Of a stretch of DNA of 64,000 nt, positions 26,410 through 30,543 are shown piece after piece. The stretch's first letter is position 1, and every line of letters starts with the position of its first letter. The stretch is from Pseudomonadota bacterium. Its GTDB lineage: Bacteria; Pseudomonadota; Gammaproteobacteria; Pseudomonadales; Ketobacteraceae. A model generated the notes under the pieces. It was given only the letters and a program-made list of their open reading frames with translations. It was not told where the DNA came from and did no database searches. The stretch lies in the NCBI GenBank assembly GCA_036337295.1, contig JAYZEN010000013.1, forward strand, positions 187,862 to 251,861. Reading direction: 5' to 3'. The translations under genes were made by a program, and so were the position numbers.

Positions 26410-26763
26410 GCTTTATTGTTGGGTATTTTTTGTTCTGGTTGTTTCTTGATGGTTAATTCGTGCGGGTTAGTTTTCTGTATTCGTTATTAATATAGCGGGT
26501 TGACGACTTTGTCATACTGCGGTCAAATGGCTGTGGGGTGACTGTATTTGGACAGGCGATTTTTGAGGCCTGCTGGATATGGTGGATTTTTAGTGATTGA
26601 TGTTTAACGGGCTGATATGAGTTCTTCGTGAATCTGTGCAAGTGGATGGAAGTGGGTGCTTCCTTGATGTATTTGCTTGGTTAGGTGTGCGGAGGACGTA
26701 GATATGAATGTTATGGCTAAACCGGCTTTGCATCTACCAAAAGGGTGTTAAAGGAAGATTAAA

Positions 26764-27717
26764 ATGCAAAACATGAAAAAATACTTTGGGTTTGAAGTGA
26801 AGGTCTCTAATTTTCTTCACCCAGAAGATTTCTCTATCATTAAGGATAGGCTCGTTAGTTTTGCTAATTCAGAAGGTTTGGATCTTGATCAGTATCGTGT
26901 ATATCTTCATCAGCTCGTAATCTTAGCAAATGAATCACATTTTGGATTGGGCGGTGGTTTGCCCGCCAGGGTTGAAAATGTGTTATTAAAATTTTCGGTC
27001 AACTACAAACAAAAAAGAGATGGAGATATTATTTTTAAAAATAATCTTCTTGAAGAAATGGAAGGAGTTAAATCGTATACCCTTCCTCATGAAATTTGCT
27101 ACACAATTCCTCCCAGCTATTTTCTTGAAAAGCAACAATTTCAGAATGCAATTGTAACGTTTGTCAGTAAATCCCTTCGTCGCGAAGATTTCAAAAAAAT
27201 AAAAGTCTGTGTTTCAGCCAACGCTACTGCAGCATTTAGGCCGCTTATACAAAGCAATCTTGCGGCGGAATCAATAACTAATCTGGATCTTCCTTTAAAT
27301 AAGGGAGTGGATTTTGACAGCGAAATAACATTAAAGCTTCAAGGAAAATTAGGAGAGGTTAAAATGCCAGGAGATGATTCAAAAACAACTAATATCTTTA
27401 ACATTCAACAAGCGGGAGCAGTATCCGCATCGGGAGAAATAACGACTAATAATAATCTGAACCAACAGCAGCAAGGAATTCCCTTTGACCATGTCATCAA
27501 GGAAATGAAGCACCTTCAAACCCTGCTTGATAAGGAAGGACTTCCTGAGCCAAGAAAAAAGGAAGTGGAGGCACTAACAGATGCAATTCAATTGGCTGAT
27601 TCAAAAAGTGAATTTATACCAAAGCTAAAAGAGGCTGGTAGCTGGCTAGCTGATAAAGCCGAAAAAGTAGGCGTCTCTCTAGTAGCGGCGGCTATAAAAG
27701 GTCAGCTAGGTTTGTAA
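26764..27717 (+). CDS. hypothetical protein (317 aa), cassette 1
   Basis: AT-rich ORF with Lys/Asn-rich composition. No recognisable domain. Its stop lies 5 nt before an attC-like element. Confidence 0.55.
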   Translation: MQNMKKYFGFEVKVSNFLHPEDFSIIKDRLVSFANSEGLDLDQYRVYLHQLVILANESHFGLGGGLPARVENVLLKFSVNYKQKRDGDIIFKNNLLEEMEGVKSYTLPHEICYTIPPSYFLEKQQFQNAIVTFVSKSLRREDFKKIKVCVSANATAAFRPLIQSNLAAESITNLDLPLNKGVDFDSEITLKLQGKLGEVKMPGDDSKTTNIFNIQQAGAVSASGEITTNNNLNQQQQGIPFDHVIKEMKHLQTLLDKEGLPEPRKKEVEALTDAIQLADSKSEFIPKLKEAGSWLADKAEKVGVSLVAAAIKGQLGL

Positions 27718-27722
27718 TCAAG

Positions 27723-27836
27723 GCCATAACAAGTTGCAGCACGCGGAGCCAGTTACGCCGCACCAATATGTGGTCGCTCCGCTCTTTACCACATATTGTC
27801 ACGTCGCAACTGGTCCGGTGTGCAAGGCGTTAGAAC
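27723..27836 (+). repeat. attC-like recombination site 1 (114 bp)
   Basis: Begins GCCATAAC (exact complement of GTTATGGC at 26710-26717) and ends GTTAGAAC. Internal inverted repeats GCGGAGC/GCTCCGC and CCAATATGTGGT/ACCACATATTGT. Confidence 0.5.
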
Positions 27837-27902
27837 TTAGATCAGCTATTACCAAATCCGAATTATTGAAGTAATCATTCGTCAGCAATTTAAGGGGGGG
27901 CT

Positions 27903-28406
27903 ATGGATGAATTCCGGCTTGTAATTGAAATAATATCGTTATCTCTATTGGCGGGATCAGTTTTTTACGCGGCTCGCCAAATAAAAAGCAGCCATGATTG
28001 GAATCGTAGAAAAGCTGCACAAGATATAGCAATTAAATATGCTGAACTTAACCCGAATAAGGTTGTAATTAATGAATTTTTGGAACGCATAGGCCATAAA
28101 GAGGCGCTAAAACTAGAAGAATTAAAGGACGAATTTAAAAGGGCTAGCGATCTCAGAGATGCTATCGATACGCTTCTTAATTTCTACGAGTTCTTGGCAA
28201 TGGGCGTGGCGCAAAAAGTATATGATGAGAAACTTATTAGAATATTTTGGGGCGAAGCCATGAGTACGAATAGAATTCGATATAAATCGTATATTGATAA
28301 CTCTATTAAGGAAGAATACCCAGACCTGTGGAGATATTTTATATCCTACACAGCAAAGTGGGATTCACAAAAAAATCAAATTCAAGAGCGAGGCTCAACT
28401 GGGTAA
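27903..28406 (+). CDS. hypothetical membrane-anchored protein (167 aa), cassette 2
   Basis: N-terminal TM helix LVIEIISLSLLAGSVFYAA. No known domain. Confidence 0.5.
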   Translation: MDEFRLVIEIISLSLLAGSVFYAARQIKSSHDWNRRKAAQDIAIKYAELNPNKVVINEFLERIGHKEALKLEELKDEFKRASDLRDAIDTLLNFYEFLAMGVAQKVYDEKLIRIFWGEAMSTNRIRYKSYIDNSIKEEYPDLWRYFISYTAKWDSQKNQIQERGSTG

Positions 28407-28420
28407 ATTTTGTTCGTCAA

Positions 28421-28497: not shown

Positions 28498-29664
28498 ATG
28501 AAAGCATACCTATTCGCATTCTGTATTTTGGCGTCCTTGAGTGGATGCGCATCATTTACTCATTACACAAAGGAAACCGATTTGAAGAATTCCAAGGCGG
28601 TTTTTGTGGATGCGAAGCAAAGAGGGATCTACAAGTTTCAAGTAAAAGACCCGCAAGGAAACGTGACTTGGGAGGGAGTTTGTGCGGAGCCATCACCTGA
28701 TGCAGTATCAGCTCTAGCAGCAACTTTAGGTGTTGATCTTTCAATAAATGATAAGGGTCAATTTGGGTTGTCTCAAGCGATATCCGAAGGTGTTAGTAGT
28801 ATCGGCCTCAGAACTGCGGCCATTGAAGCACTGCGGGATATTATGTATCGAAACTGCGAAGCTTATGCTTTAGGCGGAGTATCTAGCATGGGATTGGAGA
28901 CACTCCAAAGAAGATTTCAAAGCACTATGGTAGCGATCTTAGCAATAGAGCAATTGACGGGCGCTGTTCGTCCTCCCGCCACTATTATAGTTAGCAACTC
29001 AAAAGCAGGTGATGCTGATGCGATCGTTGACCTAACTAATAAAACTGAAACAGCGCGAAAATCTCTAGTAGATGCAAAAGAAATCGAAGAAAAAGCCAAA
29101 TCCGAGTTTGATTCGGCAACCACAAAGCAGAGCGACTCCGGGAAAAAAGTAGGGGATGGAAAAGCTGAGTATGACCGCATAAAAGCACTCGCCACTCAAA
29201 CAGATGAAGAAAAGAAAAAAGTTGCTGAGTATCAGGCCCTATTAAAAGAAGACGACGCCAACAAGAAAGCTACAGAAGAAAAGAAGAAAGAATATGACAC
29301 AGCTCAAGCGACCACCAAGGAGCGAGACCAAGCGCTTAAAGCTCTGGACGCATCAAGAGTTGCCGCTCTAACTGGAGGAGGGAGCTCTGGTAATGCCGGA
29401 GAAATTGAAAAAATTGCCCCTCGAACTGCTTTATCCGACGCGGCTGTTAAAGATATAGCGCTCGCTGTTACAAAAATCGTAGAGACAACGGTAAGCCTAA
29501 ATTACACATCCGAGGTTTGTACGACGTTAGTGGGACAGCATCCAGAGATAAAACCGGAGTACGGGTCACCAACATGGGCTTGTACAGTTTTGTTGACATC
29601 CCAGGACAAAAGCCCGAGTGCTATTCAGCAGCAGTTGTTTAATATTTTAAGTAAGCCGGAGTAG
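28498..29664 (+). CDS. lipoprotein with central Lys/Glu-rich coiled-coil (388 aa), cassette 3
   Basis: Lipobox LASLSGC after a signal peptide. RBS AAGGA. Central KKKVAEYQALLKEDDANKKATEEKKKEYD coiled-coil. Cys-containing C-terminal domain. Confidence 0.6.
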   Translation: MKAYLFAFCILASLSGCASFTHYTKETDLKNSKAVFVDAKQRGIYKFQVKDPQGNVTWEGVCAEPSPDAVSALAATLGVDLSINDKGQFGLSQAISEGVSSIGLRTAAIEALRDIMYRNCEAYALGGVSSMGLETLQRRFQSTMVAILAIEQLTGAVRPPATIIVSNSKAGDADAIVDLTNKTETARKSLVDAKEIEEKAKSEFDSATTKQSDSGKKVGDGKAEYDRIKALATQTDEEKKKVAEYQALLKEDDANKKATEEKKKEYDTAQATTKERDQALKALDASRVAALTGGGSSGNAGEIEKIAPRTALSDAAVKDIALAVTKIVETTVSLNYTSEVCTTLVGQHPEIKPEYGSPTWACTVLLTSQDKSPSAIQQQLFNILSKPE

Positions 29665-29672
29665 ACAGGTAT

Positions 29673-29700
29673 GCCTAACAAGCCAATGCACGCGGAGCAA
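29673..29700 (+). repeat. truncated attC-like site 3 (canonical inverse core GCCTAAC)
   Basis: GCCTAACAAGCCAATGCACGCGGAGC matches the 5' half of site 1 (GCCATAACAAGTTGCAGCACGCGGAGC). It lacks the 3' arm. Confidence 0.4.
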
Positions 29701-29728
29701 AAAAAATCAGATTCTTCCCGGTGAGCTA

Positions 29729-29971
29729 ATGAAGAAGATAGGCTGGTTTATAGTAGGATTTATCGCTTCTACTTTCCTCTTTTTCTGCGCGGTCTATCTG
29801 CTCGGTTGGGCAACGGAGTACCTGGGCTTTCCTCTTTACGAATCGGAATCAGATCAGCAACGGAACTTCAATATAGTTCTTGTGGGTTGGCTTTTAGTTG
29901 CAACGGTATCTGGGTTCCTCACCACAAGAATAAAAACCGGCATGTCCACCCCCAATCACTCTCAGAGATAA
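29729..29971 (+). CDS. small two-TM membrane protein (80 aa), possible cassette 4
   Basis: Two hydrophobic helices. The ORF runs from AT-rich DNA into the high-GC flank, so its 3' end is uncertain. Confidence 0.3.
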   Translation: MKKIGWFIVGFIASTFLFFCAVYLLGWATEYLGFPLYESESDQQRNFNIVLVGWLLVATVSGFLTTRIKTGMSTPNHSQR

Positions 29972-29985
29972 GCACACCGGCACCA

Positions 29986-30543
29986 TCACGGCATCCTGAA
30001 ATTCGGGGAAACCCCCTTACTCAAAAACGCCATCTGGTCCACCAGAATGCGATGGTTCGCCAGCAGGGCGAATTCAAACACATTCGGTTTGTAGGGTATG
30101 GCCAGCAGCGGCATACCGGCTTCTTCCGGTGTGCGGCAGGCTTTGGCCTGGTTGCAGGGTTTGCAGGCCGTGACGACGTTTTCCCATACGTCCAGGCCGC
30201 CCCAGGCGCGCGGGAATACATGGTCACGGCTCAGGTCCCTGGCTGCAAACTTGCGGCCGCAGTACAGGCAAACGTTGCGGTCGCGCCTGAACAGAAAGCG
30301 ATTGTCCAGGGCTGGTGAAAAGTCTGCGGTTTTGGCCGCTTTGCGGGTCGCCACGATGGGCGGCACGGTCAGCTGGCTGGTGTGGCCGTTGCCGTCGCGG
30401 CCGCCGGTTAAGACGATGCTGTTTTCCCCCAGGGACCATACCACCTGATTTTTTACCATCAGGGTGGCGGCTTTTTCCGGGGTGACCCAGCGGATCGGGG
30501 TGCCGCACACGCCCAATCTCAGTATCCAGTTTTTAATGGTCAT
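29986..30543 (-). CDS. HNH endonuclease family protein
   Basis: CLYCGRKF...DHVFPRAWGG...N...ACKPCN is a complete HNH/zinc-finger nuclease motif. 185 aa, high GC. Confidence 0.75.
   Translation of the reverse strand: MTIKNWILRLGVCGTPIRWVTPEKAATLMVKNQVVWSLGENSIVLTGGRDGNGHTSQLTVPPIVATRKAAKTADFSPALDNRFLFRRDRNVCLYCGRKFAARDLSRDHVFPRAWGGLDVWENVVTACKPCNQAKACRTPEEAGMPLLAIPYKPNVFEFALLANHRILVDQMAFLSKGVSPNFRMP

Follow-up and report, generated by a model that had tools for sequence, protein, structure and literature searches.

A small, decaying gene cassette array without its own integrase in a marine Ketobacter chromosome

Background

Cassette clusters without an integrase are common, and there is debate over how they arise, whether as decayed integrons or through insertion of cassettes at secondary sites in the genome. 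Clusters of attC sites and single attC sites that lack an integron integrase are termed CALIN and SALIN elements, respectively (Cury et al. 2016, PMC4889954; Loot et al., bioRxiv 10.1101/2022.09.11.507474). CALINs have been proposed to originate, among other routes, from loss of intI, and in 95% of them the vicinity is free of intI pseudogenes (PMC4889954). Acting in trans, integron integrases can insert cassettes into genomic attG sites (5'-GWT-3'), for which hotspot motifs are reported in E. coli (Loot et al., bioRxiv 10.1101/2022.09.11.507474).

Here we describe a 3.6-kb AT-rich segment of a marine Ketobacter chromosome, located downstream of a lipid-biosynthesis operon and analyzed within a 64-kb stretch of DNA (the window). 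We estimate a probability of roughly 75% that the segment is a small, decaying cassette array without an integrase of its own, built by an integrase encoded elsewhere at the G|TT that ends a leader, and expressed by read-through.

Like CALIN and SALIN elements, the locus contains a few chromosomal cassettes bounded by attC sites, with no intI within 4-10 kb and no intI pseudogene; the cassette functions are unassigned and none is antibiotic resistance. Unlike them, it falls between the categories, with one intact attC and two half-sites, and a sister strain (L024) places its left boundary on a single crossover G that is common to arrays with different cassettes. The resemblance to attG insertion is that the cassettes lie outside an integron platform, appear to be joined to host DNA at G|TT, and share the orientation of an upstream host operon that may be able to express them, with one point apparently reused in the manner of a hotspot. 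In contrast to attG insertion, the right half of the presumed attG is not identifiable and the right junction lies off a core site. The locus also shares features with the sedentary chromosomal integrons of marine Gammaproteobacteria (Vibrio, Pseudoalteromonas, and Halomonas-type): long attC sites of ~115 nt that conform to one family consensus, a high AT content of the cassettes, toxin-antitoxin and defence functions among them (in the sister strain, ccdAB and CBASS), and individual cassettes that recur in such arrays (L003 and L007). It differs from these integrons in lacking an adjacent intI, a Pc, and a recognisable attI, in its decaying attC sites, and in having 3-4 cassettes rather than tens to hundreds. 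The locus is a further case of an already described kind of element and shows no principle beyond published work; its sole unusual feature is the presence of other cassettes at the same insertion point in the sister strain.

Results

Composition and flanking genes

The segment lies between the final gene of the lipid cluster and an HNH endonuclease gene:

25405..26409, + strand: 3-beta-HSD/NAD-epimerase family reductase, the left flanking core gene (Pfam 3Beta_HSD, E 9e-54)
29986..30543, - strand: HNH endonuclease, the right flanking gene (Pfam HNH_5, E 1.5e-15)

The reductase has a 99% identical homologue named in Ketobacter sp.; some sources call its homologues 2-alkyl-3-oxoalkanoate reductase. 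The HNH endonuclease gene is outside the array: it is found in L024 and in L026, and it sits beside rtcR even in cassette-free relatives. GC content is 0.419 for 26410-29985 (0.345-0.47 across 400-nt windows), compared with 0.578 and 0.581 in the flanks. A first-pass annotation of the same DNA had described a fall from ~60% to ~38% GC over 3.5 kb; the fall is real, with a mean of 42% and not 38%.

An intact attC site

27724..27835, - strand: attC site S1, intact, 112 nt (the + strand reads R'' CCATAAC ... R' GTTAGAA; the - strand is the recombinogenic bottom strand)

Two checks proposed in the first-pass annotation, an attC covariance model and bottom-strand folding with a search for extrahelical bases, point to S1. 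We used two covariance models, R1 and R2, trained on attC sites of other genomes and on zero window sequence. They match the bottom (-) strand of S1 at 74-78 bits (R1 77.8 bits, E 6e-20; R2 73.9 bits, E 1e-18) and score the top (+) strand much lower (9.6 and 18.1 bits, respectively). S1 is the sole passing match in 64 kb, with both strands searched and filters off. As controls for R1/R2, 4-8 co-oriented sites are recovered in control arrays with the same model, and 152 kb of unrelated loci give zero matches.

Folded as DNA, the bottom strand of S1 reaches -32.1 kcal/mol (z -6.4) and the top strand -26.9. A bottom-strand alignment that includes S1 has 31 pairs, 17 of which covary through compensatory changes, and 94% of its cells are paired, versus 36-50% when the partners are slid. 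The consensus structure is a long imperfect hairpin in which a 2x2 unpaired spacer separates the R and L helices. On the coding strand the boxes appear in the required order, an inverse core R'' ending in AAC followed by a core R' starting with GTT. The extrahelical bases in the covariance model alignment are one bulged T in GGC[T]CC plus 1-2 extra bases in an asymmetric loop, and every one of them lies on the bottom strand's 3' arm (the R''/L'' arm); the minimum free energy fold has three single-base bulges, again on this arm. The canonical extrahelical bases of attC-aadA7 are a G and T pair, and the identities in S1 are unlike these. We conclude that S1 is a genuine attC site.

Cassettes and their ORFs

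26711..27829, + strand: cassette 1, intact, comprising a 5' UTR, ORF1, and the attC up to the crossover G
26764..27717, + strand: ORF1, 317 aa, predicted to have an N-terminal beta-sandwich domain connected through a disordered linker to a helical bundle at the C-terminus
27830..28466, + strand: cassette 2, with its 5' boundary intact and its attC truncated
27903..28406, + strand: ORF2, 167 aa, DUF4760 family, with an N-terminal transmembrane helix (Pfam DUF4760 E 1e-20; phrog_2284 E 2e-8)
28498..29664, + strand: ORF3, 388 aa, predicted to be a lipoprotein (MKAYLFAFCILASLSGC), with a coiled-coil segment; its family has >400 members

The start of a cassette should complement the inverse core of its own attC, a rule that the array had been claimed to follow. 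Cassettes 1 and 2 do so. GTTATGGC at 26710 and the reverse complement of GCCATAAC at 27723 are identical (8/8), and GTTAGAAC at 27829 agrees with the reverse complement of ATTCTAAC at 28421 at 7/8 positions, the start of cassette 2 (TTAGAAC) complementing the inverse core TTCTAA(C) at 28422. Cassette 3 does not, as its start (TTATTA, 28468) is not complementary to GCCTAAC at 29672.

Cassette 1 has 97.0% DNA identity to a Tara metagenome contig (L003), with a dS of only 0.03, and 91.6% to Halomonas sp. ATBC28 (L007). In both arrays its neighbours differ on both sides, and the homology opens exactly at G|TT and closes at the attC R', placing the edges of the cassette at G|TT in three genomes and three contexts. 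With a start that complements its own inverse core and a presence in different arrays, cassette 1 is a mobile gene cassette. Only this cassette (ORF1 and S1) appears to retain both recombination partners, and it could still be excised. ORF3 has a homologue in L009 that is a cassette flanked by G|TTAGGC and GCCTAAC.

Truncated attC sites

28422..28466, + strand: S2, the 5' half of an attC: R'' and L'' plus the beginning of the central region (parent attC length 107-117 nt)
29672..29734 (right end approximate), + strand: S3, a degenerate attC that retains the left arm GCCTAACAAGCCAATGCACGCGGAGC and a trace of L' (CCCGGTGAGC); R' is absent

S2 resembles the first ~43 nt of 11 full-length family members at 88-95% and then diverges; a deletion has taken away the 3' arm, together with the sequence that originally opened cassette 3. 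It scores 9.4 bits with R1 (E 3.7) and has no match with R2, and its short hairpin is weak (z -2.7). The left arm of S3 shows homology both to S1 and to the attC in the L009 cassette, and S3 shows no fold (z +0.75), scoring 8.7 bits with R1 (E 5.9) with no match to R2. Neither site presents a complete R''-L''...L'-R' palindrome to the two models. The internal arms that the first-pass annotation saw as common to the sites are present as exact repeats, both above chance: GGAGCCAGTTACGC occurs exactly twice, at 27745 and 28442, and TAACAAG-N5-GCACGCGGAGC occurs at 27727 and 29676. Its description of 3-4 ORFs, each followed by an imperfect palindrome, fits S1 only, as S2 is weak and truncated, S3 is unfolded, and no attC-like site lies 3' of ORF4 (29729-29971). 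It had also listed the third site alone as truncated; S3 does keep GCCTAAC and has lost its 3' arm, but S2 is truncated too.

In mobile (class 1) integrons, fused cassettes are two cassettes joined by partial deletion of the intervening attC. Similarly, S2, S3, and one L024 site keep the R''-L'' half and then run into the ribosome-binding site of the next ORF, and the missing 3' arms of S2 and S3 are probably deletions that fused cassettes to their neighbours. Unlike in fused cassettes of mobile integrons, 3/7 sites are affected over the two strains, and the 3' arm is always the part lost.

The family to which these sites belong is found elsewhere. A search pattern of 23 bases taken from S1 and S2 (chance expectation ~0.03, estimated from collection size and pattern length) matches 12 loci in 11 gammaproteobacterial species, and every match is a full attC of 107-117 nt. 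The S1 family (~115 nt) sits in cassette arrays of at least 11 gammaproteobacterial genomes, where consecutive sites follow the cassette rule (7/7).

The leader and the sister strain

26410..26709, + strand: leader, non-coding, 42% GC, G+T-rich on the + strand, 95.4% identical to L024 11006-11310
26710..26716, + strand: crossover core G|TTATGG at the junction of leader and cassette 1, a putative docking site of attI or attG type (from the L024 and Tara comparisons)
29729..29971, + strand: ORF4, 80 aa, with two predicted transmembrane helices; the 3' part from 29851 is a right-end remnant common to L024

L024 is a Ketobacter strain that is ~96% identical and has the same 305-bp leader, conserved to the same G|TT and ending exactly at the crossover G. 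The leader is the tail of an ungapped 10.7-kb block with 96.1% identity to L024 that ends at window position 26714, and it belongs to the species backbone. Homology stops after GTTAT, within GTTATGGC in the window and GTTATATG in L024, and in each strain the junction and the inverse core of that strain's first attC (window GCCATAAC, L024 CATATAAC) are exact reverse complements of each other. Past G|TT, L024 carries a different AT-rich array, with cassettes encoding ccdAB and CBASS. With other cassettes beyond the same G|TT, we infer that an integrase acting in trans used that point. The first-pass annotation had found both flanks without intI, which stands; the left flank is not featureless, given a conserved leader that ends at the crossover G.

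Within the leader, R1 and R2 have no match up to E 10, the bottom strand of 26640-26720 folds at just -3.5 kcal/mol, and a promoter scan gives no + strand promoter. The leader has no terminator-like site and no recognisable attI architecture or integrase-binding repeats; its one GTTAGGT motif, at 26682, has a different sequence in L024 (GGATAGGT). Compared with attI, it has the position at the proximal end of the array, use by two different first cassettes, and GTT at the junction. Compared with attG, it has GTT at the junction, and no cassette-free leader was found among L026, which lacks the leader, and L027-L030, which lack the whole segment. The leader may serve for cassette docking, as the relic of an attI or as a genomic hotspot of attG type.

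The flanks of the window locus and L024 are 90-97% conserved. The right homology block begins at window position 29851, which is not a core site, and the difference between the strains is therefore at least partly due to illegitimate or homologous recombination and not to site-specific recombination. L024 keeps just ~40 C-terminal codons of ORF4, behind stop codons, and the coding status of ORF4 is doubtful.

Integrase search and class of element

A tblastn search of the 64 kb with an approximate IntI1 sequence as query finds no intI; the same query picks up the tyrosine recombinase of L023 at 2e-29. By Pfam annotation, called genes in window 16.8-40.5 kb include no Phage_integrase, and there is no integrase within 10 kb on either side of the window locus or of L024. 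None of the loci fetched yielded an integron integrase.

[quoted passage not shown] L024 qualifies, with two intact attC sites (101 and 78 bits) 2.5 kb apart, and the window locus does not, having one intact site by R1/R2. It is not a complete integron either, since there is no intI and the reductase ends directly 5' of the leader. It agrees with a SALIN, in which a lone attC accompanies a CDS and the surroundings contain neither an integrase nor a second att site, save for the two vestigial half-sites. By these definitions, and with attC sites counted with the R1/R2 models, the locus is a CALIN decayed to the SALIN state. The earlier reading of a remnant, CALIN-like array holds for a cassette array without an integrase, now a SALIN with one intact attC. 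That reading is supported because models trained on outside sequences pick S1 alone, the edges of cassette 1 fall at the crossover elsewhere, and arrays of the family obey the cassette rule.

Discussion

Under the reading that we prefer, circular cassettes, each an ORF with a folded attC, would have been inserted by an integron integrase encoded elsewhere, at the G|TT closing the conserved 305-bp leader. Deletions then stripped the second and third attC of their 3' arms, fusing cassettes to their neighbours. The cassettes are most likely expressed by read-through from the upstream operon, because all of them are co-oriented with it and the leader has no terminator-like site.

The leader may go further and be a free-standing docking site (an orphan attI or attG hotspot) without its own integrase that still gains or exchanges cassettes via a Ketobacter integrase elsewhere, with parallel loss of attC 3' arms progressively locking cassettes in place. 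This extension is tentative and we would give it less than even odds. If it is true, a single chromosomal point would be a satellite integron platform with content that varies between 96%-identical strains. The close strain pair, with different cassettes at the same crossover nucleotide, is a possible test case for trans insertion at a genomic hotspot, and the locus is also one for attC decay after cassettes become fixed.

A rather unlikely history is that the locus was once a complete chromosomal integron, with intI and Pc upstream and the leader as the old attI region, until a deletion took out intI and brought attI up against the 3' end of the reductase gene. Like an attI, the leader stops at a crossover point that has seen use, the array is visibly decaying, and loss of intI is among the origins proposed for CALINs (PMC4889954). 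Against this, tblastn finds no intI pseudogene in the leader or flanks (as for 95% of CALINs, PMC4889954), and the reductase stop codon comes directly before the leader, with the ungapped block spanning it in both strains. The first cassettes also differ between the two strains, and therefore integrase activity outlasted any loss of intI.

Whole arrays could instead have been swapped by homologous recombination via the flanks (the leader on the left, the ORF4 remnant and HNH gene on the right) with no recent integrase action. The conservation of both flanks would support such an exchange, as would the right breakpoint off a core site. The left breakpoint lies exactly at G|TT and is complementary 8/8 to the first attC in each strain, whereas a homologous crossover would land anywhere in the flank, and an integrase would still be needed at some time to assemble arrays at the junction. 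We consider this improbable.

That the repeats are REP-type or other intergenic palindromes or terminators in an unrelated, horizontally acquired island is largely ruled out: the sites do lie just 3' of ORFs, S1 is a long hairpin, and Rfam has no family matching the sites, but the S1 hairpin has no T-run, members of its family form co-oriented arrays in keeping with the cassette rule, cassette edges fall at G|TT in three genomes, and within the 64 kb there is a single intact copy and the family is confined to the island, showing over that length none of the genome-wide scatter that the first-pass annotation had named as evidence for REP-type elements.

The cassettes show that this marine alkane-degrading genus taps a cassette pool shared with Halomonas and with the source of the Tara contig, a pool that in the sister strain includes a CBASS defence cassette.

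An AT-rich island with four ORFs

The first-pass annotation described a fall in GC content from ~60% to ~38%; the drop is real, but the mean across 26410-29985 is 42% rather than 38%, with 58% on both flanks and local minima of about 35%. The left neighbor of the island is the terminal gene of a lipid cluster, which encodes a reductase of the 3-beta-HSD/epimerase family, and the right neighbor is an HNH endonuclease gene on the reverse strand.

Genes and sites of the island
26410-26709, non-coding leader, ending at the crossover G|TT
26764-27717, + strand, ORF1
27724-27835, site 1, attC
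27903-28406, + strand, ORF2
28422-28466, site 2, half-site
28498-29664, + strand, ORF3
29672-29734, site 3, half-site
29729-29971, + strand, ORF4

No attC site lies 3′ of ORF4, and only 14 nt separate its stop from that of the HNH gene. tRNA-Met was the sole Rfam match in the whole window at gathering thresholds, and blastn of the island against plasmids gave no match. In metagenomes, only distant relatives of ORF2 were found (≤38% identity), none adjoining an attC, and a 22-mer representing the leader's 3′ end had no match in JGI metagenomes.

The lipid cluster (19719-26409) is kept across Ketobacter relatives. It encodes a condensation/PapA-like protein, an MMPL transporter, two FabH-like ketosynthases, and the reductase, which some sources annotate as 2-alkyl-3-oxoalkanoate reductase (OleD-like).

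Site 1 is an attC

The boundary boxes named in the first-pass annotation are there: GTTATGGC (26710) and GCCATAAC (27723) are exact reverse complements of each other, and GTTAGAAC (27829) has the near-exact match reported, agreeing with the reverse complement of ATTCTAAC (28421) at 7 of 8 positions. The internal arms said to be shared by the sites occur in the window solely within the island, above chance. A related imperfect palindrome had also been placed after each ORF, which holds for site 1 only; sites 2 and 3 are not equivalent to it and ORF4 has none. Site 1 is a long imperfect palindrome with a bottom-strand fold of -32.1 kcal/mol (z -6.4) and a top-strand fold of -26.9. Site 2 forms only a short hairpin (z -2.7), and the bottom-strand folding check found no fold for site 3.

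We searched a collection with one genome per species for a 23-base pattern common to sites 1 and 2; given the size of the collection and the length of the pattern, we estimate that about 0.03 chance matches are expected. The 12 loci that matched come from 11 gammaproteobacterial species: Aliikangiella, Pokkaliibacter, Ketobacter, a Ketobacteraceae MAG, Azotobacter beijerinckii, Balneatrix, Cycloclasticus, Motilimonas (two strains), and three Pseudomonadales or Gammaproteobacteria MAGs. Each match forms the left arm of a complete site, 107-117 nt long and with GGCGTTA at its end. Aligning the bottom strands of these sites, a copy on a Tara Oceans contig, and site 1 gives a consensus hairpin of 31 pairs, with compensatory changes in 17. 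Paired cells make up 94% of this hairpin, versus 36-50% with the partners slid, and every shuffle fell short of what was observed. The anatomy is as expected of attC: a TAAC/GTTA R helix, a 2x2 unpaired spacer, a covarying L helix, a bulged T and asymmetric loop on the R′′/L′′ arm, and a variable terminal hairpin.

The attC covariance-model check suggested for the region was run with two models trained on sites of other genomes, and both find site 1 as the sole site in 64 kb. The first model (R1; 12 sites, none from the window; filters off) scores its minus strand at 77.8 bits (E 6e-20), with nothing else in the window below E 0.28. The second (R2), rebuilt from 24 matches in other genomes, gives the bottom strand 73.9 bits versus 18.1 for the top. 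Elsewhere, the models recover 4-8 co-oriented sites of 48-125 nt per locus, with the cassette rule kept by consecutive matches in 7 of 7 cases, and there is no match at E ≤ 0.01 in 152 kb of unrelated loci; they are general attC detectors. A marginal R2 match at 61998-62097 (+ strand, 15.6 bits, E 0.08) lies in coding sequence, has neither AAC nor GTT, and is judged to be noise. Our own attC scanner (NNNYAAC...GTTRNNN pairs with a constrained bottom-strand fold) was too unspecific, as coding DNA gave comparable energies, and was used solely for reading the array on the Tara Oceans contig.

Sites 2 and 3 are vestiges

Up to 28466, site 2 aligns collinearly with the first ~43 nt of the 115-nt family (88-95% identity). 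Past this point there is no family likeness, and the sequence goes directly into the ribosome-binding site of ORF3. Its small hairpin, GGAGC-N7-GCTCC, lies inside one arm of every full-length family member, and its presumed R′ (GTTATTA) is not complementary to the inverse core 3′ of ORF3. Site 2 is therefore a 5′ half-site. We rejected a short functional attC of ~55 nt because the collinearity with 115-nt members simply stops, the presumed R′ violates the cassette rule, and R2 misses the site while giving a genuine 48-nt attC 37 bits.

The third site is truncated, as first described: of its L′ just a trace (CCCGGTGAGC) is left, and it has no R′. Its left arm is that of the attC after an ORF3 homologue on a metagenome contig (L009), where G|TTAGGC and GCCTAAC mark the two cassette ends. 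R1 places sub-threshold matches of 9.4 and 8.7 bits exactly at sites 2 and 3 on the correct strand, which fits vestiges rather than chance. On another metagenome contig (that of P0017, JGI 3300059473), a 60% homologue of ORF3 lies among nine co-oriented small ORFs, including a caspase-like peptidase, Abi_alpha, and SLATT_4; by gene content, this run looks like a defense-rich cassette array.

Cassette 1 occurs in other arrays

Homologues of ORF1 were found on the Tara Oceans contig (97% identity), in Halomonas sp. ATBC28 (93%), and in Pseudoalteromonas piscicida (88%). The Tara and Halomonas copies are within runs of small co-oriented ORFs with attC sites between them. DNA homology to cassette 1 (26711-27829; ORF1 and site 1) starts exactly at G|TTATGGC (G|TTAGGGC in Halomonas) and stops at R′ of its attC, and the neighbors on both sides are unrelated. 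The attC upstream of the Halomonas copy closely resembles attC-aadA7. A dS of 0.03 against the Tara copy and dN/dS of 0.05-0.36 across copies indicate that ORF1 is functional and was recently transferred. The P. piscicida homologue (10001-10954 of its locus) has an attC on neither side and adjoins a TIR/AAA_25/DnaB_C gene, showing that ORF1 genes are not confined to cassettes.

A sister strain carries other cassettes at the same nucleotide

The reductase is 99% identical to that of Ketobacter sp. GCA_003671495.1, which places the window in a Ketobacter, and the two loci align in two blocks. The left block is ungapped over 10,714 nt (96.1%) and ends at window position 26714 (junction GTTAT); the right block (97.4%) starts at 29851, within ORF4. 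Between them, the counterpart of window 26715-29850 is a different island of 5.2 kb and 42% GC (sister locus 11311-16514).

Island of the sister strain, in order
ccdB/ccdA, reverse strand
attC, intact, 101 bits
CD-NTase gene and Cap15-type effector gene (CBASS)
5′ half-attC (~13597-13625)
FRG-domain gene
attC, intact, 78 bits
two unknown ORFs and a degenerate site, R′ mutated to GCTAGAT

The sister junction is GAATG|TTATATG, and its first attC opens with the exact complement, CATATAAC. The same G at the leader end therefore bears different, correctly bounded first cassettes in the two strains, and has served more than one cassette as crossover point. The second sister cassette opens G|TTAGTTGC, and the half-site 3′ of the effector gene opens with its exact complement, GCAACTAAC. 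Because the right junction falls outside any core site, some of what distinguishes the strains stems from recombination of other kinds.

In all three decayed attC of the two strains (28422-28466, 29672-29734, and sister ~13597-13625), the R′′-L′′ half is kept and the 3′ arm lost. The remnants abut the ribosome-binding site of the next ORF, with breakpoints ~28, 38, and 45 nt into the site.

An 81% relative has neither the leader nor any attC. Relatives at 79% and 67% (L027-L030) have none of the segment that starts with the leader, continues with the HNH gene, rtcR, and rtcB, and takes in the Band-7 gene, so the array is at the edge of a larger variable region. The missing genes at 29986-~36000 include tRNA-Met (34338-34413) and the Band-7/SPFH gene, and in these relatives the reductase gene directly adjoins response-regulator and recG genes.

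No local integrase

The first-pass annotation recognized no intI on either flank, and tblastn with an IntI1 query gives none in 64 kb. The same query detects a tyrosine recombinase of Motilimonas cestriensis MKS20 at 2e-29, and is therefore a valid probe. Precomputed Pfam annotation has no Phage_integrase domain within 10 kb on either side of the island in both strains, and no intI was found in the fetched arrays (loci of ≤8 kb each).

The Motilimonas recombinase (329 aa, 4546-5535 of its locus) is followed by a 350-aa gene, and the pair, which extends to 6572, is at the proximal end of a cassette array, the position expected for intI. We considered it as an integrase, but the next gene reads as a putative IS91-like (Y2) transposase, so the recombinase is probably not IntI.

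Classification and proposed history

The element is made of integron cassettes, with one intact attC and two half-sites. A CALIN comprises two or more attC sites with no intI close by, and 95% of CALINs have no intI pseudogene nearby; listed origins include intI loss and insertions made at secondary sites by an integrase whose gene lies elsewhere (Cury et al., PMC4889954). A single attC site is a SALIN (Loot et al., bioRxiv 10.1101/2022.09.11.507474). On this basis the window locus, in its present state, counts as a SALIN that retains two vestigial sites, and the sister locus as a CALIN. The earlier reading as a remnant cassette array without integrase is supported with these corrections. Defense and toxin-antitoxin cassettes are reported in sedentary chromosomal integrons (bioRxiv 10.1101/2024.07.02.601686), and those of the sister strain are like them. 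We found no paper on integrons in Ketobacter. The kind of element is otherwise known; the point worth pursuit is a common crossover nucleotide with strain-specific cassettes.

Circular cassettes were probably inserted at the leader G|TT by an integrase encoded elsewhere. Integrase-mediated insertion at genomic 5′-GWT-3′ sites, including hotspots, has been shown experimentally, and cassettes at genomic sites are expressed from nearby host promoters (Loot et al., bioRxiv 10.1101/2022.09.11.507474). The docking point may be a relic attI or a genomic attG-type site as in that study. The cassettes are probably transcribed by read-through, since they are co-oriented with the upstream operon and a scan of the leader found no terminator-like site; nor did it find a + strand promoter. 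Deletions that took the 3′ arm of an attC and the 5′ boundary of the next cassette would have joined cassettes 2, 3, and 4 together and left cassette 1 as the only excisable one.

A possible insertion element beside attC

An element opening CTGTAG lies directly 3′ of attC R′ in several unrelated genomes: Halomonas sp. ATBC28 (5885-6940), L009 (~3240), locus L019 (~1320), and, beside a family attC, locus L022 and M. cestriensis. It starts CTGTAGAAAAAC in the first three and CTGTAGGATTTT in the last two. The Halomonas element has inverted repeats at its bounds (CTGTAGAAAAACCC...GGGTTTTTCTACAG) and a DUF772 (IS5-type) transposase gene inside. These features suggest that the element is an insertion sequence with the attC crossover region as its target.
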